Assembly: GCA_951406725.2 (NCBI GenBank)
Contig: OX597831.1
Location: 5,022,001 to 5,086,000, forward strand
DNA from: Octopus vulgaris
Lineage: Eukaryota
Length of the DNA stretch: 64,000 nt
Direction: 5' to 3'
In this document: positions 2,496-63,635 of the stretch, one piece after another
Layout: each line of letters opens with the position of its first letter
How positions within the stretch are numbered: the stretch's first letter is position 1
The notes under the pieces: generated by a model
Seen by the model: only the letters and a program-made list of their open reading frames with translations
Database searches by the model: none
What the model was told of the DNA's origin: nothing
Program-made: the position numbers and the translations under genes

Positions 2496-2679
2496 ATCAG
2501 TCTGGTATCGATTTTAGTCAATGATATCCCGATAAAAGGACGCTCAATGAATCGCATTTCGAAACTAATAATGGGCGTAAATTGAAATTTCATATTGGTC
2601 AGAGTAACTTTCCTCTCTTACATGACCAGGTGAACTGAGGCAGTCACAAGAGACAAGGCACTATATAATACTGGATATA

Positions 2680-2713
<34 letters not shown>

Positions 2714-2715
<2 letters not shown>

Positions 2716-3110
2716 CGCAGGAGTGGCTGTATGGTAAGTAGCTTGTTAACCAACCACATGGTTCCAGGTTCAGTCCCACTGCGTGGCATCTTGGGCAAGT
2801 GTTTTCTGCTATAGCCCCGGGTCGACCAATGCCTTATGAGTGGATTTGGTAGACGGAAACTGAAAGAAGCCTGTCGTATATATGTATATATATATGTGTG
2901 TGTATATCTTTGTGTTTGTCCCCTTAGCATTGCTTGACAACCGATGCTGGTGTGTTTACGTCCCCGTAAATTAGCGGTTCGGCAAAAGAGTGCGATAGAA
3001 TAAGTACTAGGCTTCCAAAGAATGAGTCCTGGAGTCGAGTTGCTCTACTAAAGGCGGTGCTCCAGCATGGCCGCAGTCAAATGACTGAAAGAAGTTAAAG
3101 AGTAAAAGAG
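2714..3110 (+). mobile_element. SINE family A, full length (tRNA-derived head, internal TA/TG microsatellite, LINE-like tail)
   Basis: Pol III A-box-like TGGCTGTATGG and B-box-like GGTTCAGTCCC. Tail ggcggtgctccagcatggccgcagtcaaatgactgaaa followed by gtaaaagag repeats. Many near-identical copies in the window. Confidence 0.9.
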
Positions 3111-3126
3111 TATATATATATATACA

Positions 3127-3365
3127 CTCTTTACTCTCTTTTTACTCTTTTACTTGTTTCAGTCATTTGACTGCGGCCATGCTGCAGCACCGCCTTTAGT
3201 AGAGCAACTCGACTCCAGAACTCATTCTTTGGAAACCTAGTACTTATTCTATCGGACTCTTTTGCCGAACCGCTAAGTTACGGGGACGTAAACACACCAC
3301 AATCGGTTGTCAAACGATGTTGGAGGGACAAACACAAAGATATACACACACATATATACACACAA

Positions 3366-3427
<62 letters not shown>

Positions 3428-3589
3428 GATGGGCTTCTTTCAGTTTCCGTCTACCAAATCTACTTACAAGGCTTTGGTGGGCCCGAGGCTATAGTAGAAG
3501 ACACTTGCCTAAGGTGCCACGCAGCGGAACTGCACCCGGAAGCATATGGTTGGTAAACAAGCTACTTACCACACAGCCATTCCTGCGCC
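3127..3589 (-). mobile_element. SINE family A, full length, inverted relative to the preceding copy
   Basis: Reverse complement of 2714-3110 with a longer internal (TA)n. Confidence 0.9.
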
Positions 3590-3971
3590 TGTGTGTGTGT
3601 GTGTGTGTGTGCATATACACACACGCACACAAATGTATGTACGTGTAGATGCATGTGTGGCCCTGACATGTATAATTAAATTAGATTCGGATAAAAACCT
3701 TGTAGTAAGTTGTGCAAAGCTCAAAGCACGTCCACAGGTATTGGTTATCAGATGTCATCATATGATGGGAATACTCAAAGCTACAGGATATACATTAGAA
3801 AAGCGCATCTTGCACCTTTGTTCGATAACATGGATTATACAATATGTTATTCATGTGGTTTCACCAATGTACTACGAATGTAAAAAAAAATGTGTGGAAA
3901 TAGTTGTAGTGATATTAAATAAAGATTATCATTCAGTCCGTTTTCTATTATTATTATTATTATTATTGTTG

Positions 3972-7517: not shown

Positions 7518-7809
7518 TTGCTTTGCTTTGCTTTGTGATGGAGTTCACCTAGGGCGGGTTGAGCCGGCTTCTTCTCTGGTCCTGACGGCATCACGAACCA
7601 TGGCAGCCCACGCTCGACGGTCCTGTGCGAGGTCATTGGAGATAGCGAACCATTCGCGGTTCCATCTGCGCAGACCGACCACCTGCGGACCTGAGAGTTC
7701 AGAGAGGTCCTCCTTTATCGTCGTTGCCCATGTCTTCAGCTTCCCGCCCGTGCGTTTGCGCCAGTTGGGAAGCGGAGGTGGGAGAAGGTCATCGCGAATC
7801 AGCTCACTT
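7518..7809 (-). mobile_element. 5'-truncated RTE-clade LINE, 3' end
   Basis: Encodes RKRTGGKLKTWATTIKEDL...LAQDRRAWAAMV, a typical RTE ORF C-terminus. Short 3' UTR ending in (CAAAG)n. Candidate 14-bp TSD ctaattagcacgac (7504) / ctaattggcacaac (7810). Confidence 0.8.
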
Positions 7810-8104
7810 CTAATTGGCACAACGCCATTTTGTCGGTTACTCTGCAAATTCTAGAGAAATGCTTTAAAATAGGAAGGAAGGTGACAATAATAAAATGGTT
7901 CATATCAGTAATAGTCAGTGAGACACAGGTTGACTGACCTGGGGTTAAACCGCAACATAATCAACAACAACCCAACAATAAGCAATAACACCTGCTATGG
8001 CTGTCCTTATCAGAGGTCAGTGAATCTATATAGACGAACTGATAGTGTTGAAGTGGTTGAGTACATCAAAAGCACACAAACACGGAAATACTTATAAATA
8101 CGAT

Positions 8105-19750: not shown

Positions 19751-20034
19751 GCGTCTCTAAAAGAAATGGAGAAACTTTCAAAATACAAAGACCTGGAAAT
19801 AGAGGTAACCAGAATGTGGAATCTAAAAACAGAAACAATTCCTATCATAGTAGGTCCATTAGGCATGATAAAAAAATATTCAGACAAATACATAACAAAA
19901 ACATCAGGACTTACAAAACATATAACATACAGAAAATTGCACTACTAGGCACTGCACACATCCTACGCAGAACACTTTCCATACAATAACCATCAGAGCA
20001 TCACAACAAATCACAGCACAAACCCAAGGCACAC
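19751..20034 (+). mobile_element. 5'-truncated Dong/R4-like retrotransposon inside an (AAT)n tract
   Basis: SLKEMEKLSKYKDLEIEVTRMWNLKTETIPIIVGPLGMIKK...IQKIALLGTAHILRRTL, plus a short 3' UTR. (AAT)n on both sides. Confidence 0.85.
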
Positions 20035-21558: not shown

Positions 21559-21682
<124 letters not shown>

Positions 21683-21747
21683 GTATACATACATTGACAC
21701 ATATCTATATAGATGTGTACATATACATATATATATATATATGTATA

Positions 21748-21788
<41 letters not shown>

Positions 21789-21951
21789 AGGCGCAGGAGT
21801 GGCTGTGTGGTAAGTAGCTTGTTTACCAACCACATGGTTCCGTTTTCAATCCCACTGCGTGGCACCTTGGGCATGTGTCTTCTACTATAGCCTCGGGCCG
21901 ACCAAAACCTTGTGAGTGGATTTGGTAGACGGAAACTGAAAGAAGCCCGTC

Positions 21952-21989
<38 letters not shown>

Positions 21990-22030
21990 CATTTGTGTGT
22001 TTGTGTGAGTGTGTTTGTCCCCCTAGCATA
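21789..22030 (+). mobile_element. SINE family A, 5' half and start of 3' half
   Basis: Near-identical to the head at 2714. Confidence 0.85.
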
Positions 22031-22439
22031 GCCAATGGAAAAGTAATTATGCAATCAAGTTCATTAGCTCACAGTTGTTTCTGCTACATGTAAAGAAGTA
22101 AAGAAGCAATACACTTAGAGCTAGGTGCTTGAGCCACATCTTATAGTTTCCCCGGAGTTATTACATTAAAGGAGAACATTCATGCGTGTGTTTGTATCTG
22201 CGTTTGTATGTATCTGCAGTAATATGTTATTTGCTAGGTATGTATGACATACAATCACACACGAGATCTCTATGGTGAATTTGAACTACAATCTCTATGC
22301 AATCACTTTTGTAGACTATTTAGCCATTTTATTTCTTCTATCACGTGATGATATCTATCATCATTTTCTAATATAATGGAATTGTGGGATTGATCGAATC
22401 CATCAGCCGCACATTACTGGTGTGGAAACGAACTAATGA

Positions 22440-23229: not shown

Positions 23230-24127
23230 TCTATAAGCATAAGGCCTGAAATTTTGAAGAAAGTTCTAGTTGATTACATCGAATCCAGTGCTCAACGAGT
23301 TCTTTATTTTATCGACCCCCATCGAAGGATAAACAGCAAAATAGACCTGCGATGGAATTTGAACTCAGAGCGTAAAGCCGGAACTAAAAGCGCGAAGCAT
23401 TTTGTTCTGTGTAGTAATGTTTCTTATTTCTTTATTGCCCACAAGGGGCTAAACATAGAGGGGGACAAACAAGGACAGACAAACGGATTAAGTCGATTAT
23501 ATCAACCCCAGTGCGTAACTGGTACTTAATTTATCGACCCCGAAAGGATGAAAGGCAAAGTCGACCTTGGCGGAATTTGAACTCAGAACATAAAGACAGA
23601 TGAAATACTGCTAATCATCTCACCCAGCGTGCTAACGTTTCTTATTTCTTTATTGCCCACAGGGGGCTAAACATAGAAGGGACAAACAAGGATAGACAAA
23701 CGGATTAAGTCGATTATATCGACACCAGTGCGTAACTGGTACTTATTTAATCGCCCCCAGTGCGTAACTGGTACTTAATTTATCGACCCCGAAAGGATGA
23801 AAGGCAAAGTCGACCTTGGCGGAATTTGAACTCAGAACGTAAAGACAGATGAAATACTGCTAATCATCTCACCCGGCGTGCTAATGTTTCTTATTTCTTT
23901 ATTGCCCACAGGGGGCTAAACATAGAGGGGACAAACACGGACAGACAAACGGATTAAGTCGATTATATCGACCCCAGTGCGTAACTGGTACTTATTTAAT
24001 CGTCCCCATTGCGTAACTGGTACCTATTTAATCGACCCAGAAAGGATGAAAGGCAAAGTCGACCTTGGCGGAATTTGAACTCAGAACATAAAGACAGATG
24101 AAATATTGCTAAGCATCTCACCCGTCG
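23230..24127 (-). mobile_element. SINE family B head-to-tail concatemer (three young units plus one older unit)
   Basis: Units start near 23420, 23638 and 23887 with no spacer DNA. Confidence 0.9.
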
Positions 24128-28314: not shown

Positions 28315-28556
28315 CTCTTCTACTCTTTTACTTCTTTCAGTCATTTGAATGCGGCCATGCTGGAGCACCGCCTTTAGTCGAGAAAATCGACCCCAGGACT
28401 TATTCTTTGTGAGTCTAGTATTATTCTATCGGTCTCTTTTGCCGAACCGCTAATGTTACGAGGACGTAAACACACCAGCATCGGTTGTCAAGCCTTGTTG
28501 GGAGGACAAACACAAACACACAAACATATACAGTTACATATACACACATGCACACG

Positions 28557-28588
<32 letters not shown>

Positions 28589-28589
28589 C

Positions 28590-28620
<31 letters not shown>

Positions 28621-28791
28621 TATACATATACGGGCTTCCTTCAGTTTCCGTCTACCAAATCCACTCACAAGGCTTTGGTCGGCCTGAGGCTACAATAGAA
28701 GACACTTGACGAAGGGTGCCACGCAGTGGGAGTGAACCCGGAAACATGTGGTTGGTAAGCAAGCTACTTACTCCACAGCCACCCCTGCGCC
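28315..28791 (-). mobile_element. SINE family A, full length
   Basis: Reverse complement of the family A consensus. Confidence 0.9.
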
Positions 28792-28820
28792 TATTTCCTC
28801 ATTTGAATTATTATCATTAT

Positions 28821-28851
<31 letters not shown>

Positions 28852-29014
28852 GGCGCAGGAGTGGCTGTGTGGTAAGTAACTTGTTAACCGACCACATGGT
28901 TCCGGGTTCAGTCCCACTGCGTGGCATCTTGGGCAAGTGCCTTCTGCTATAGCCCCGGGCCGACCAATGCCTTGTGAGTGGATTTGGTAGACGGAAACTG
29001 AAAGAAGCCTGTCG

Positions 29015-29071
<57 letters not shown>

Positions 29072-29306
29072 GTGTATATATCTGTGTGTGTGTGTGTTTG
29101 TGTGTCTGTATTTGTCCCCCTAGCATTGCTTGACAACCGATGCTGGTGTGTTTACATCCCCGTCACTTAGCGGTTCGGCAAAAGAGACCGATAGAATAAG
29201 TACTAGGCTCACAAATAATAAGTCCTGGGGTTGAGTTGCTCGACTAAAGGCGGTGCTCCAACATGGCCACAGTCAAATGACTGAAACAAGTAAAAGAGTA
29301 AAAGAG
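28852..29306 (+). mobile_element. SINE family A, full length
   Basis: Near-identical to 2714-3110. Confidence 0.9.
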
Positions 29307-29750: not shown

Positions 29751-29810
29751 AACTGTCTGATGAACGGCAACGAAAACTCAGAGTAACAGATTTTGTTGAA
29801 TTTTCTGCTG

Positions 29811-29848
29811 CTGTCTGATGAACGGCAACGAGAAACTCAGAGTAACAG
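29811..29848 (+). ncRNA. Type I hammerhead ribozyme motif
   Basis: CUGU-CUGAUGA-A-CG(GCAA)CG-A-GAA-ACUC(A)GAGU-A-ACAG, with stem I CUGU/ACAG and a GUA cleavage triplet. Confidence 0.7.
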
Positions 29849-29950
29849 ATTTTGTTGAATTTTCTGCTGCTTAAAATAAAGCATATTACTCTACCACTGG
29901 TATTTGAGTACTCTTTTTTCCACCTTGTTTCACATTTATGTGTTTACTCC

Positions 29951-33399: not shown

Positions 33400-34400
<1,001 letters not shown>

Positions 34401-38019: not shown

Positions 38020-38231
38020 TGTTTGTGTGTCTGTGTTTGTCCTCCCAACAACACTTGATAGCCGATGCTGGTGTGTTTACGTTCCCGTAACTTAGCGGTT
38101 CGGCAAAAGAACCCGATAGAATAAGTACTAAGCTTCCAAAGAAATAGTCATGGGGTCGATTTGCTCGACTAAAGGCGGTGCTCCAGCATGGCCACAATCA
38201 AATGACTGAAACAAGTAAAAGATTAAAAGAT

Positions 38232-38293
<62 letters not shown>

Positions 38294-38497
38294 TGTGTCT
38301 GTGCTTGTCTCCCCACCATCGCTTGACAACCGATGTTGCAGTGTTTACTTCCTCGTAACTTAGCGGTTCGGCAAAAGAGACCGATAGAATAAGTACTAGG
38401 CTTACAAGGAATAAGTCCTAGGGTCGATTTGTTCGACCAAAGTCGGTGCTCCAGCATGGATACAGTCAATTGACTGAAACAAGTAAACGAATAAAAG

Positions 38498-38500
<3 letters not shown>
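38020..38500 (+). mobile_element. Two tandem SINE family A 3' halves separated by (TG)n
   Basis: Both match 2910-3110, and neither has the tRNA head. Confidence 0.85.
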
Positions 38501-38570
<70 letters not shown>

Positions 38571-38834
38571 TGAGAATATATAAAATAATGTATATATATA
38601 TTTGCACATAAGGTCTGCAAATCTAACGGAGGCCGCGAAAACACTATTAGATCCATAAAGTGCAGTTCTCGGTGGTTCAAATATGCAATTTATGTGGGAT
38701 TCTTTTTAAAACATTACCTTGTTTAAAAAGCCACGTAAGACACAATGATAGATCTAAGGTGTTTAGAACAAAAGATGGTCAGACTCTGCTTAAGGACTAG
38801 ATAGCTACCATATATATATATATATATATATATG

Positions 38835-39670: not shown

Positions 39671-39702
39671 GGTCATATGTACGTAGGTATACACGTACGT
39701 AC

Positions 39703-39888
39703 GTATTTCGTCCGCCGCTACGTTCTGAGTTCAAATTCCGCCGAGGTCGACTTTACCTTTCATCTTTTCGGGGTCAATAAATTAAGTACCAGTTACGCAC
39801 TGGGGGTCGATGTAATCGACTTAACCCGTTTGTCTGTCCTTGTTTGTCCCCTCTGTGTTTAGCCCCTTTGTGGGTAATAAAGAAATAG
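39703..39888 (+). mobile_element. SINE family B monomer truncated at gtatttcg, with flanking direct repeat
   Basis: taggtata(c/t)acgtacgtacgta occurs at 39684 and 39886. Confidence 0.85.
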
Positions 39889-40306
39889 GTATATACGTAC
39901 GTACGTACGTACGTATGTATGTATGTATGTATATATGTATGTGTGTGTGTATGTATGCATGTATGCGTGTATGTATGTATATGGCAAAGCATACCACTGA
40001 ATATATGTGTGTTTGCGTGTGTGTAGATGTATCTGTAAGGGTGGTGGTAGGTAGTGGTGATATAGTGGTATATATGTGTGTATATGTGTGTGTATATGTA
40101 TTTATATATGAATGTGTATGTGGATATGTATTTGTATGTGTATATATGTATTTGGCAAAGCATACCAGCATATATATATGTGTGTGTGTGTGTGTGTATG
40201 TGTATATGTGTAGATGTGTCTAAAATGGTGGTGGTGGCGGTTGTGGTGATATTCATACACCGTACCCCAATAAAACTACAACACCACCATCATCCGCAAC
40301 CCCATC

Positions 40307-42420: not shown

Positions 42421-42508
<88 letters not shown>

Positions 42509-42782
42509 ACAAGCTGATTAAGCGAAACTGGAAGTTCTAATCATCTCAGAGTTGATTAATACATTTGACTTTAGAATCCAGCCACCAGTAGATGCTCTGG
42601 TATTCTTTATAAACCGATTGACAATGTCAATTACTGCGATTTATACAAATATGGTTGGGAGGTAAGACGTTTCTTTCACAACCGCAATGGTTCCGGATGT
42701 AGTTTGTCTGCGCATCATACGTGAGATATGCAGGGATATTGCATCTGCAGTTCCATTATTTAAGCAGAATGGTATGAATATA

Positions 42783-43204
42783 TATTTCTTTACTACCCAC
42801 AAGGGGCTAAACACAGAGGAGACAAACAAGGACAGACAAAGGGATTAAGTCGATTACATCGACCCCAGTGCGTAACTGGTACTTATTTAATCGACCCCGA
42901 AAGGATGACAGGCAAAGTCGACCTCGGCAGAATTCGAACTCAGTACGTAATGACAGACGAAATACCTATTTCTTTACTACCCACAAGGGGCTAAACACAG
43001 AGGAGACAAACAAGGACAGACGAAGAGATTAAGTCGATTACATCGACCGACCCCAGTGCGTAACTGGTACTTAATTTATCGACCCCGGAAGGATGAAAGG
43101 CAAAGTCGACCTCGGCGGAATTTGAACTCGGAACGTAACGGCAGACGAAATACGGCAACGCATTTCGCCCGGCGGTGCTAACGTTTCTGCCAGCTCGCCG
43201 CCTT
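42783..43204 (-). mobile_element. SINE family B dimer
   Basis: Two units joined at about 42965. ggtatgaatata occurs at 42771 and 43216 (candidate TSD). Confidence 0.9.
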
Positions 43205-43717
43205 CTGGTATGAACGGTATGAATATAAGTTTCCTGTACCTTGTGTGTAAGTTCAAATAGTATTTAAAATTGGTCACTCCAAGCATAGTGTTTGTTTGTA
43301 AACGGTGTTATTATTAACACACGCACACGCACATAACGATGCATGGAAAAGCATTAGTGAGCATGTGTGTATGTATATATGTATGTGTTTGTGTGTGAGT
43401 GTGTGTAGCTTTGTGTGCGTTCGCTTCTATAAATAGCACTCACTCGATTACCCTGCGCCAATTTCCAGTCTTGTAGACTAATCAGTCATATATTATTTGT
43501 CAGACAAAATTCATACATCATCTGTTAGTCACAGCATTGCGAAGACTAGTTAATGACGTCATATCATCTGTTCGCCATATTCGTATATGATTCCGTTGTG
43601 TGATTACGACAAACTAGAGCTTAACAGGCAAAGAGATTCCCTAACTGTATCGTTATTGTCATCATTAGTCGGATGGCGCGATGGCAGAATCGTTAGAGCG
43701 CCGGATCGGAAATATTT

Positions 43718-44532
43718 ATTTTTTTCATTGCCCACAGGGGGCTAAACATAGGGCGGACAAACAAGGACAGACAAAGGAATTAAGTCGATTACATCGACCC
43801 CCAGTGCGTAACTGGTACTTATTTAATCGACCACGAAAAGATGAAAGGCAAAGTTGACCTCGGCGGAATTTGAACTCAGAACGTAACGGCAGACGAAATA
43901 CCTATTTCTTTACTACCCAAAAGGGGCTAAACACAGAAGGGACAAACAAGGACAGACAAACGGATTAAGTCGATTGTATCGACTCCAGTGCGTAACTGGT
44001 ACATATTTAATCGCCCCCGAAAGGATGAAAGGCAAAGTCGACCTCGGCGGAATTTGAACTCAGAACGTAACGGCAGACGAAATGCGGCTACGCATTTCGC
44101 CCGGTGTCCTAATGTTTCTTATTTCTTTATTGCCCACAAGGCGCTACACACAGAGGGGACAAACAAGGACAGCTTGTTTAAGTCGATTATATTGACCCCA
44201 GTGCGTAACTGGTACTTATTTAATCGACCCCCAAAAGGATAAAAGGCAAAGTTGACCCCGGCGGAATTTGAACTCAGAACGTAACGGCAGACGAAATACC
44301 TATTTCTTTACTACCCAAAAGGGGCTAAACACAGAAGGGACAAACAAGGACAGACAAATGGATTAAGTCGATTATATCGACTCCAGTGTGTAACTGGTAC
44401 TTATTTAATCGACCCCCGAAAGGATGAAAGGCAAAGTCGACCTCGGCGGAATTTGAACTCAGAACGTAACGGCAGACGAAATACGGCTACGCATTTCGCC
44501 CATGCTAACGTTTCTGCCAGCTCGCCGTCCTT
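43718..44532 (-). mobile_element. SINE family B tetramer
   Basis: Junctions at about 43901, 44115 and 44299. 16-bp TSD cggatc(g/t)gaaatattt at 43702 and 44533. Confidence 0.9.
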
Positions 44533-45029
44533 CGGATCTGAAATATTTCAAACCCTACCAATATCAAATTTGCTTTTTCTTTCTTCAGGATCGATCAAAT
44601 AAAGTACGACTAAAATACCGAGGTCGACGAAATACCCCCCTCCCGTCAAAATTTTTGGCCTTCTGCTTAAATCAGTAGCAATTAGAATCATTATCATTAA
44701 TGGGTGGTTACACTGGGTGGAGTATCGGGGTAGAGGATGAACAGTGGGTGGAGTATCGGGGTGGCACAATGGCAAAGCTTGTAATGTATTCGCATACCTC
44801 ATTCACCAAATTTTATGTGCTTGTGCCCAGGTTTGAAACAGTTTGTAAACAACTTCTCTTTCATGGTTTTTACTGAGGCGATGAACAGGCAGAATCTTCA
44901 GCGCGCCGGACGAAATGCTCCGAGACATATCTTTCGGCTTTACGTCCTAAATTCAAGTTCCGCCCCATAAGAACGACTTTGTCTTCCATTCTTTTTGGAT
45001 CTTTTTGTAGTCACTGTTGTTGTTCTTGT

Positions 45030-49133: not shown

Positions 49134-49530
49134 GGCGTAGGAGTGGCTGTGTAATAAGTAGCTTGTTTACCAACCACATAGTTCCGGGTTCAAGTTCCAC
49201 TGCGTGGCACCTTGGGTAAGTGTCTTCTACTATAGCCTCGGGCCGACCAAAGCCTTGTCAGTGGATTTGGTAGACGGAAACTGAAAGAAGCCCGTCGTAT
49301 ATGTATATATATATGTGTATGTGCGTGTTTGTGTGTCTGTGTTTGTCCCCCCAACATCGCTTGACAACCGATGTTTACGTTCCCGTAACTTAGCGGTTCG
49401 GCAAAAAAGAGACCGATAAAATAAGTACTAGGCTTACAAGGAATAAGTCCTGGGGTCGATTTGATCGACTAAAGGCGGTGCTCCAGCATGGCCACAGTCA
49501 CATGACTGAAACAAGCGAAAGAGTAAAGAG
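49134..49530 (+). mobile_element. SINE family A, full length
   Basis: Near-identical to 2714-3110. Confidence 0.9.
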
Positions 49531-54471: not shown

Positions 54472-54650
54472 TTTCCCAACAAAGTAACGTCATAGTTGAT
54501 AAAGACGGCAAACGGAAGCACACGCGGCCGACATTTTCTGGCCAACAGATATTCGCCCTGGAGAAAACATTTGAACAAACAAAATACTTAGCAGGACCAG
54601 AAAGAGCGCGACTGGCTTACGCACTCGGGATGTCAGAGAGTCAAGTTAAG
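54472..54650 (+). CDS. NKX6: Internal exon of an NK6-class homeobox gene (homeodomain residues 1-46)
   Basis: Encodes [59 protein letters not shown], nearly identical to the Nkx6/HGTX homeodomain. Pyrimidine tract and CAG acceptor end at 54471 (phase 1). Donor AAG|GTAGGT at 54651 (phase 0), just before the expected VWFQNRR. Confidence 0.97.
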
Positions 54651-54793
54651 GTAGGTGAATGAATCGTCTTTTGACATTATTTAAACAAACGATTTAGTTG
54701 GAAACAACACTATCTCTAAGTATGGATTACTCTGAGTGTTTGTGTCTGCGAGTGTGGGTATATATGCATAAATAAGTGCATGTATATATACTT

Positions 54794-61999: not shown

Positions 62000-62635
62000 C
62001 AGTTTCAATTTTTGGCACACGGCCAGCAGTTTTGGGGAGTGGGTAAGTCGATTAGATCGACCCCAGTTTTCAACTGGTACTTTATGTTATTGGCCCCGAA
62101 AAGAATGAAAGGCAATGTTGACCCCAGTGGAATTTGAACTCAGAACGTAAAGACGGGAGAAATACCGTTAAAAATTTTGGCCGGCGTGCTAACGATTCTG
62201 CCAACTCGCAGCCTTACGACTATTAGTAATATCGGCTACAAATTTTAGCACTGAGCCAGCAATTTCGAGAGAGGGAATAAGTTGATTAGATCGACTACAG
62301 TGCGAAACTGGTACTTTATTTTATCGGCTACGAAAGGATGAAAGGCAATGTCGACCTCGGTGGAATTTGAACTCAGAGCGTAAAGACGGACGAAATACCT
62401 ATTTCTTTACTAACCACAAGGGGCTAAACACAGAAGGAACAAACAAGGACAGACAAACGGATTAAGTCGATTATATCGACCCCAGTGCGTAACTGGTACT
62501 TAATTTTATCGACCCCGAAAGGATGAAAGGCAAAGTCGACCTCGGCGGAATTTGAACTCAGAACATAGCGGCAGATGAAATACCGTTAAACATTTTACCC
62601 GGTGTGCTAACGATTCTGCCAGCTCGCAACCTTAC
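62000..62635 (-). mobile_element. SINE family B cluster, three units including a dimer joined at about 62398
   Basis: Matches the family consensus, with the same junction as at 42965. Confidence 0.85.
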
Positions 62636-62665
62636 AACTATTGTTAGTATTATCACAGAGTATAA

Positions 62666-62880
62666 AGCGGAGATCTAGCAGAATCGTTAGCATGCCGGGT
62701 GAAATGCTTAGCGGTATTTCATCTGTCTTTACATTCTGAGTTCAAATTCCGCCGAGGTCGACTTTGCCTTTCATCGTTTGAGGGTCGATAAATTAAGTAC
62801 CAGTTGTGTACTGGGATAGACCTAATCGACTGGCCACCTTCCCCAAAATTTCGGGCCTTGTGCCTAGGTTAGAAAAGGAT
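62666..62880 (+). mobile_element. SINE family B
   Basis: gcagaatcgttagcatgccgggtgaaatgcttagcggtatttc...gagttcaaattccgccgaggtcgac. Confidence 0.85.
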
Positions 62881-63182
62881 ATCATCATAGAGTATAATTA
62901 TAACTGCACCTCATCAATGCGGTTCAGCTTCCGGTCACAATCCACTGATCAGTTTTCTGGATGTCAGTAAGAGATACCAAATGAATGAGGCTCAGTCCCA
63001 AAACCTGCAATCAATTAATCTAGCTCAGCTGCTCTCAAATGTCGTCCGTATGACCCTTGGCAATCCATTTAAGATTTTGTAGTTAAGATTTATGCGCAAT
63101 GAATTAATTATATTTCTACAACACTGAAAATATTTCAACGATATTTTAATGTAATTCCTAATAATATTTAATTATTAATTAA

Positions 63183-63635
63183 GGCAGCCAGCTGGCAGAA
63201 CCATAAGCATGCCGGACAAAATACTTAGCGGCATTTCGTCCGTCATTGCGTTCTGTGTTCAAATTCTGCCGAGGTCGAATTTGCCTTTCATCTTTTCGGG
63301 GTCAATAAAACAGATATCAGTTGAAGACTGGTGGGGGGGGGGTCAATGTGATCGACTTATACCCACCCACTCCCCGAAATTGCTGGCCTTGTGCCAAAAC
63401 ATGAAACCGATAGTTGTGAGGAGGCGAGCTGGCAGAATCGTTAACACGCCGAACAAAATACTTAGAGGCATTTCGTCTGCCTTTGCGGACTGTGTTCAAA
63501 TTCCACCGAGGTCGACTTTGCCTTTTGTCCTTTCAGATTCGATGAAATAAATACCAGTTGAATACTGGGGTCGATTTAATTAACTTACTCCCTCACCGGA
63601 AATTCCTGTCCTTGTGCCAAATTTTGAAGCCAGTA
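63183..63635 (+). mobile_element. Two SINE family B copies
   Basis: Heads at about 63183 and 63421. Confidence 0.85.

Follow-up and report, generated by a model that had tools for sequence, protein, structure and literature searches.

A four-unit SINE array in an octopus genome and its probable growth by insertion into SINE heads

Background

On the minus strand of the octopus sequence studied here (43718-44532, 815 bp), four head-to-tail units of one SINE-like family are enclosed by a single pair of target-site duplications (TSD). The question that this locus raises is whether the four units arrived together, as a copy of a multimeric template, or whether they accumulated one after another in the same place. 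A sequence-only reading of the window (the whole 64-kb stretch of DNA that was analysed, within which all positions are counted) took the first view.

Head-to-tail multimers are frequent among the mammalian SINEs B2, Dip and Ves, with up to eight units for Dip, and the available text of PMC8466645 leaves their origin undecided between insertion into another copy and multimeric templates. Complex SINEs as such are a recognised class, as far as the accessible portions of PMC3531059 and PMC4758252 go. The family described here, which we call B, allows a direct test of the question of template versus nesting that the same portion of PMC8466645 leaves open for B2, since each of its two tail subtypes marks a junction position of its own and since the heads of family B can be told from those of a related family, A.

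Two SINE families in one window

The window is eukaryotic in its sequence context, AT-rich and rich in microsatellites, and about 9% of it consists of the two related SINE-like families, which have a common head and central region and different tails. A BLAST search of the window with the 5'-most array unit, T1, gave 28 matches, of which 11 have the family-B tail and 17 lack it. The 11 family-B units are found at five loci: the array (T), a dimer (D), a trimer (R), a nested copy (N62) and a monomer (M). A complex SINE that moves as a fixed multimer, as Alu does, would show many copies of one multi-unit architecture, each with a TSD of its own. The architecture is different at every one of these five loci, in a 64-kb window that is too small to exclude rarer architectures that repeat.

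Family B has the properties of a tRNA-derived SINE in being short, non-coding, interspersed and flanked by TSDs, which are present at T, D, M and N62; at R, taken alone or together with its host, the search gave only 6-bp matches, which is the level of chance. An A-box-like motif is present in T1 and D1 and a B-box-like motif in all six units of T and D, as matches to consensus patterns, and on these pattern matches the internal Pol III boxes of a tRNA-derived SINE are present as well. SINEBase, in its available part, defines such an element by a head at least 60% identical to a tRNA. An ARAGORN scan for tRNAs returned 0 genes and an Rfam scan of 42500-45000 gave no tRNA match; the four weak matches of the latter do not overlap the array, and no ribozyme family appeared among them at E values up to 10. 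We presume that both families resemble the octopus tRNA-derived SINEs OR1 and OR2 of the CORE superfamily, a likeness that consists of a tRNA-like head, a common central region and two different tails, here those of A and B. OR2 is cited as a CORE-SINE of Octopus vulgaris in the available part of PMC5804259. Another candidate name for an octopus repeat, 'Twinkle', led to 0 papers and was dropped. The family-B tail pattern gave 0 matches in prokaryotic genome contigs. A search of the window for a partner LINE with the family-B tail as the query returned only the 11 units and five short weak matches, which were dropped, and no LINE.

The array and its target

Table 1. Positions of the array, its parts and the loci compared with it
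Feature	Position	Strand	Description
Outer TSD, copy at array 3' end	43702..43717	.	16 bp, 1 mismatch
Unit T4	43718..43902	-	begins at head position about 50; tail subtype 2, degenerate end
T3/T4 junction	43895..43911	-	sequence identical to T1/T2 junction
Unit T3	43903..44119	-	begins at head position about 18; tail subtype 1; sister of T1
T2/T3 junction	44114..44128	-	tail to head position about 18; AAAGAAATA followed by AGAAAC
Unit T2	44120..44300	-	begins at head position about 50; tail subtype 2 (GGGCAAT)
T1/T2 junction	44293..44309	-	tail to head position about 50; AAAGAAATA followed by GGTATTTC
Unit T1	44301..44532	-	full head; tail subtype 1 (GGGTAGT)
Outer TSD, copy at array 5' end	44533..44548	.	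16 bp, 1 mismatch
Older family-A SINE hosting the array	43669..44705	+	empty-site alignments to four A copies
R	23425..24123	-	family-B trimer, three tail-to-AGAAAC junctions
M	39702..39887	+	headless family-B monomer, begins at position about 48, in non-SINE DNA
D	42783..43204	-	family-B dimer: full-head unit D1 and unit D2 from position about 50
P62	62002..62217	-	adjoining sister family-A copy without insert: natural empty site of N62
N62	62235..62636	-	family-A SINE with 185-bp family-B insert (62400-62584, includes one repeat copy) at GGTATTTC

The four head-to-tail units of family B over about 815 bp, as first described, are indeed there, and so is the flanking direct repeat of 16 bp with one mismatch, which abuts the array at both ends. 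When random pairs of 48-mers of non-low complexity were drawn from the window, 3 of 1500 scored as well as this outer TSD. It is single and clean, and no inner TSD was found within the array. What the first reading missed is the host: closing the gap in silico shows that the array was inserted antisense into an older family-A SINE on the plus strand, whose head is left at about 43669-43707 and whose body and tail are left at about 44546-44705. About 35 bp of this host are deleted beside the target, and because the deletion is present in both copies of the TSD it must be older than the insertion.

In T1 the A-box-like motif lies at 44508-44519, the B-box-like motif at 44449-44460 and a TTTT run at 44317-44320. 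The statement that only the 5'-most unit retains the head holds in one respect, namely that T1 is the sole unit with a whole A-box-like motif. It does not hold for the head as such: T3 keeps 34 bp of it (44086-44119) that T2 and T4 do not have, with the A-box-like motif cut so that its first four bases are lost. T3 also carries a TTTT run (43919-43922) in common with T1. T2, with two such runs, has eight private events, the most among the 11 units.

There are five TTTT runs in the 816 nt of the array against one in the 1542 nt of the other family-B loci (p 0.02-0.05), and TATTT and TGTTT are present in every unit. In the accessible text of PMC8466645, mammalian Pol III terminates at TTTT in 65% and at TATTT in 42% of cases, both TATTT and TGTTT acting as partial terminators. 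Five TTTT runs are awkward for a single Pol III transcript of the array, but the argument is weak, as these figures are mammalian and every unit carries the two partial terminators.

A junction formed in place

The most instructive of the comparison loci is N62, at 62.4 kb. It is a nested insertion of a B body in the head of a family-A SINE, with a natural empty copy, P62, adjoining it. The target duplication is the 8-bp GGTATTTC (62577-62584 / 62392-62399). The head of N62 is A-type (AGAATCGTT, TTTAACGG) and is identical to that of P62 at 52 of 58 positions; with T1 the count is 42 of 55 and with D1 it is 46 of 58. Beyond the insert and its 8-bp repeat, an A body and an A-type tail resume, with rare states in common with P62. 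The body alone does not single out P62, since the emptied N62 body is identical to it at 91 of 108 positions and to T1 at 92 of 107; that the two copies are sisters follows from the shared rare states, the type of tail and similar flanks of nine bases. Nested insertion can thus create a position-50 junction at the site itself. Furthermore, the target that was duplicated coincides with position 49-56 of the element itself, and the insertion therefore mimics a seamless unit of head and body followed by a headless unit, and this is the same pattern as that seen at T1/T2, T3/T4 and D1/D2.

The other three loci differ in what they show. The monomer M is flanked by a repeat of 22 bp with one mismatch (39684-39705 / 39886-39907) that begins with TAGGTAT, the letters of tail plus junction. 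At the dimer D the junction (42959-42975) is of the T1/T2 type, and the candidate TSD noticed earlier proved to be real: 16 bp with one mismatch (42767-42782 / 43212-43227), though seven extra bases separate it from the element's 5' end. D contains no TTTT run and one variant private to its two units, and it may well have moved as a unit. In the trimer R, the last AGAAAC junction leads at 23425 into an old family-A body (23238-23424); no head remnant was found before its first unit. Its three units form a supported clade (96/95), which shows that local amplification occurs in family B.

Recurrence of the junctions

Of the three junctions in the array, two join a tail to head position about 50 and one joins a tail to position about 18. 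We could score 10 tail ends from the 11 units, since the degenerate end of T4 did not match the pattern. The tail is followed by GGTATTTC at four of them (T1, T3, D1 and 62400), by GGTAT at one (39887, where the DNA is not SINE), by AGAAAC at four (T2 and three ends at 23.4-23.9 kb, in R) and by other sequence at one. The junction follows the subtype of the tail: subtype 1 leads to GGTAT in 5 of 6 cases and subtype 2 to AGAAAC in 4 of 5. Outside the array, the junction of the tail with GGTATTTC recurs at 42967 and 62400. Counted as independent loci, the position-50 junction is present at three plus the monomer M and the position-18 junction at two, the three junctions of R not being independent as its units are one clade. 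The evidence for recurrence comes from five loci in a single 64-kb window.

GGTAT has a frequency of about 0.001 in the window; 7 of 10 GGTATTTC sites lie in SINEs, against 11 of 108 other GGTAT sites, and this fits landings in heads with homology beyond five bases. The G at the junction is absent from the heads of T1, T3 and D1 (..CCG.ATTTC) and must therefore have come from RNA, although a multimeric template fits this observation equally well. When the heads are folded as RNA, a stem of 12 bp results and the position-50 junction falls at its apex; the z-scores are weak (-0.56, -1.27, -1.62), and folds of the tail and of junction-spanning RNA were no better than those of shuffled sequences. 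On this modelled fold, a structural preference of nicking or a stalling of the reverse transcriptase may contribute at position 50.

Two further counts bear on the origin of multimers. All 11 units end at the tail and none is permuted. Junctions from B to B number six and those from B to A two, while A-type matches outnumber B units by 17 to 11. Such an excess would not be expected from independent insertions alone, hence multimeric templates or local copying must contribute.

How the four units are related

The alternation of diagnostic words in the order A-B-A-B, which had led to the proposal of a dimer of dimers, is real; the proposal itself is not sustained by the relationships of the units. 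T1 and T3 are 96.7% identical (176 of 182 columns), whereas T2 and T4 are 88.2% identical (157 of 178). The distance of seven events between T1 and T3 is the smallest of all 55 pairs, and the 15 events between T2 and T4 are equalled or undercut by 23 of the 55. Exact doubling of a dimer, whether by a template jump on one dimer RNA or by unequal crossover, would make T2 and T4 as close as T1 and T3, with both halves equally diverged, and this is not seen. The strength of the contrast depends on how events are counted: equal rates are rejected with raw counts (7 versus 25 events, p 0.002) and with merged events to which three tail differences were added by hand (7 versus 18, p 0.04), and not with merged events when the tail end is left out (7 versus 15, p 0.13).

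Four of ten T4-specific substitutions relative to T2 match variants carried by at least two copies from other loci, against none of ten for T2 (p 2e-4 to 0.013, post hoc). On these sequence comparisons, T2 and T4 seem to come from different source genes. The trees do not reject a grouping of T2 with T4, leaving it open in one case and placing the two on one side of a branch at 50/71 in another. The markers by which T2 and T4 alternate with T1 and T3 are a tail variant that each of the three units at 23.4-24.1 kb carries as well, and a single site of CpG decay. T4 also has two variants in common with both units of the dimer at 42783-43204, 500 bp away, and two others in common with units of R, so that it is a mosaic.

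The differences are unevenly spread. Between T2 and T4, a single column of 58 differs in the 5' part and 14 of 118 in the 3' part, and the two have one CpG decay in common; the 5' part is near the consensus in all four units, and T4 differs from T1 there at 1 of 58 as well. Differences between T1 and T3 are denser in the head, where we counted 5 in 39 by eye, than in the body, where there are 6 in 175 (Fisher p 0.03, or 0.12 without CpG). The idea that T2 is a chimera of T4 and another copy is a weak one: it rests on a single CpG site and conflicts with a G-run common to T1 and T2. All units of the array differ from each other by 3-12%.

A probable stepwise origin

In our opinion it is reasonably probable that the array grew stepwise, by insertions targeted to SINE heads, together with a local copying event that made sisters of T1 and T3. 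A founder SINE, whose body we infer to be T4, would have made the single outer duplication, and later copies of the family would have entered its head at the two recurrent junction sites. Since nesting in the head of the founder keeps the founder's TSD around the whole, one outer TSD does not show that there was one insertion. As to the claim of a tetramer inserted as one unit, therefore, the single TSD stands as an observation, but it does not discriminate, and the same kind of junction was formed in place at 62.4 kb.

The following mechanism would produce such an array. The reverse transcriptase of a LINE would start at the B tail, and RNA bases past the tail would anneal to the nicked target. 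That the 3' end of the RNA pairs with nicked target DNA is, in the accessible part of PMC6007223, an accepted model for L2, CR1, RTE, I and R1Bm. Transcripts of B would not stop at the tail but continue into the following head of a nested source locus, so that the bases after the tail would be SINE-head sequence (GGTAT.. for subtype 1, AGAAAC.. for subtype 2), the source copies being nested themselves, and resident SINE heads would thereby become preferred targets. The 5' end would merge by homology and absorb the inner duplication, leaving no inner TSD to be seen. In one fitting order, T4 would come first, T2 would enter at position 18 and a subtype-1 body would next enter one of the heads at position 50; in the last step gene conversion or unequal exchange would copy the subtype-1 body into the other head and so give A-B-A-B. 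Other options are that the founder was a dimer, or that a subtype-2 cDNA primed at position 18 was resolved on T4 and thereby duplicated the first unit. The proposed order would explain the alternation, the likeness of T1 and T3, their greater difference in the head than in the body, and the TTTT run that they have in common.

A more far-reaching idea, which we offer tentatively and consider rather doubtful, is that family B is a self-homing SINE. The head bases after the tail would serve as an inherited RNA guide that sends each tail subtype to a fixed head position, where the insert captures a working Pol III promoter and becomes a new source with the same guide. If this were true, the cycle would be self-perpetuating, and older SINEs would be both safe landing pads and seeds of tandem arrays.

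Alternative explanations

The earlier suggestion of multimeric templates has a part that survives. Because the junction sequence follows the tail subtype, the source loci are probably multimeric or nested, and dimers may move as units; exact doubling and rolling-circle copying are the parts that we would give up. A tetramer assembled beforehand at another locus, a concatemeric master transcribed from the T1 promoter and inserted here once, would account for the clean single TSD with no inner ones, for the one intact promoter at the 5' end and for the excess of B-to-B junctions, and D, with its TSD, its private variant and no TTTT run, gives it some encouragement. Such a transcript would, however, have to read through up to five TTTT runs and be recognised through the degenerate tail of T4, and the architecture occurs once among the five loci. 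It also merely relocates a stepwise assembly, which N62 shows to be possible in place, and for these reasons we think it rather unlikely. We regard as improbable a version in which two dimer templates were joined by a template jump of the reverse transcriptase at AGAAA microhomology and inserted once. The alternating tail subtypes, the sister relation of T1 and T3, the presence of AGAAA both in the tail and at position 18, and a tree that does not reject T2 with T4 would all suit it; but T2 and T4 are much less alike than T1 and T3, and the family variants of T4 that T2 does not have would demand two different dimers with matching first halves. Moreover, at 23425 a junction of this AGAAA type is followed by an old A copy.

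If a single dimer had been inserted and its DNA doubled afterwards, and if gene conversion from other copies had then replaced part of T2 or T4, one could understand why T2 and T4 are so similar in their 5' part and so different in the 3' part, why they have a CpG decay in common, and why T1 and T3 have the same TTTT run, since such a run is easier to copy as DNA. Homologous crossover in a dimer restores the position-50 junction only, though, and not the one at position 18, and the 5' likeness counts for little where all four units are near consensus; there is, we believe, a small chance of this. Rolling-circle reverse transcription of a circular SINE RNA is very improbable. M does correspond to exactly one period, from position about 50 to the tail plus GGTAT, and the apex of a hairpin is a place where RNA could be cut and ligated. 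Such copying predicts one type of junction and near-identical units without an intact 5' head, since a headless circle cannot supply one, whereas the array has two types of junction, units 88-97% identical and a full head; nor is any unit permuted, and the Rfam matches included no ribozyme. An artefact of assembly, for instance a tandem joining of two haplotypes, has to be mentioned as tandem repeats are error-prone in assemblies, but with units that all differ from each other and a middle junction of the type of the family we give it hardly any credence. The reading that we prefer thus remains stepwise growth by head-targeted insertion with a local copying event.

Comparison with other systems

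The closest parallel that we found is in the blood clam Scapharca broughtonii, where HCD SINEs form TSD1-(SINE)n-TSD1 arrays of 4-15 units (PMC11481361, in its available part). As in the octopus, several units of one family lie within one pair of TSDs, and the whole tRNA-related head is present only in the first unit, later units being head-truncated. In contrast, the inner units of the clam are, in the same text, cut at one head position and have no 3' tail, and unequal recombination is indicated; in the octopus array every unit has a complete tail, and there are two alternating cut positions and two tail subtypes. The multimers of B2, Dip and Ves, as the accessible text describes them, join full-length units through an A-rich tail, whereas in the octopus the insertion lands within the head of the copy downstream. 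Squamate SINE-derived satellites consist of tandem units that are parts of SINEs, with alternating dimeric patterns in some species (PMC10702118, available part); they differ in being long arrays amplified at the DNA level, and that portion of the paper describes no recurrent tail-to-head retrotransposition junction. By analogy with them, R may be an early stage of a SINE-derived satellite.

The 3' end of the element overlaps the start of the TSD at M, at N62 and at the outer site, which resembles L2, CR1, RTE, I and R1Bm. The systems treated in the accessible part of PMC6007223 have microsatellite tails with an overlap of one to few bases, or rDNA targets, while the guide that we infer for the octopus is the element's own head sequence. 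A retrozyme-like element would be expected to have a self-cleaving ribozyme, and near-identical units with one type of junction; the array has neither, the former being judged by Rfam families only.

Implications

As a single locus the array is a modest finding. Arrays of the type TSD-(SINE)n-TSD are already known in bivalves, and the possible novelty lies in RNA-guided self-targeting, seen in only five loci. We found no literature on head-targeted self-insertion of an octopus SINE, in a search that had most subscription journals outside its reach and that is no proof of novelty. The locus does serve as a warning that one TSD around an array is no proof of one insertion. If self-homing held genome-wide, it would be a simple route by which a non-coding element achieves sequence-specific targeting and by which headless copies capture a promoter.

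Additional observations

Several features of the family loci deserve a brief description. The seven extra bases at the 5' junction of D (43205-43227) repeat part of the target beside the TSD, and the first two units of R carry an internal duplication of 32 bp. N62 and P62 belong to a dense SINE cluster (62002-62880 and 63178-63635) that includes another A pair; a tandem A pair in the cluster has similar 9-base flanks in a TSD-SINE-TSD-SINE-like arrangement, and an inverted A copy lies head-to-head at 62663-62880. On the minus strand at 33401-34359, four family-A copies follow one another, and a long (TTA)n tract lies between two of them, which suggests that they were inserted into earlier tails.

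An exon that encodes a homeodomain, presumably of Nkx6 type to judge by its sequence, lies on the plus strand at 54516-54653, and the SINE array is about 10 kb upstream of it. Its match to Pfam PF00046 has an E value of 5e-11.

Broken LINE-like reading frames are present at 19751-19945 (+) and 7548-7850 (-), and we assume that they are R4/Dong-like and RTE-like, respectively. A homologue search with the former gave 7 relatives from 46 candidates, at 57-88% identity; in a comparison of three LINE-like frames with Pfam no convincing family was found. A further interspersed repeat family occurs at 2661-3648, 21671-22054, 28378-29151, 38128-38689 and 49190-49468, with recurring translations around microsatellites. 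Tandem repeats lie at 21-387 (period 96, 3.8 copies) and at 29753-29871 (period 59, 2 copies, 98% match).
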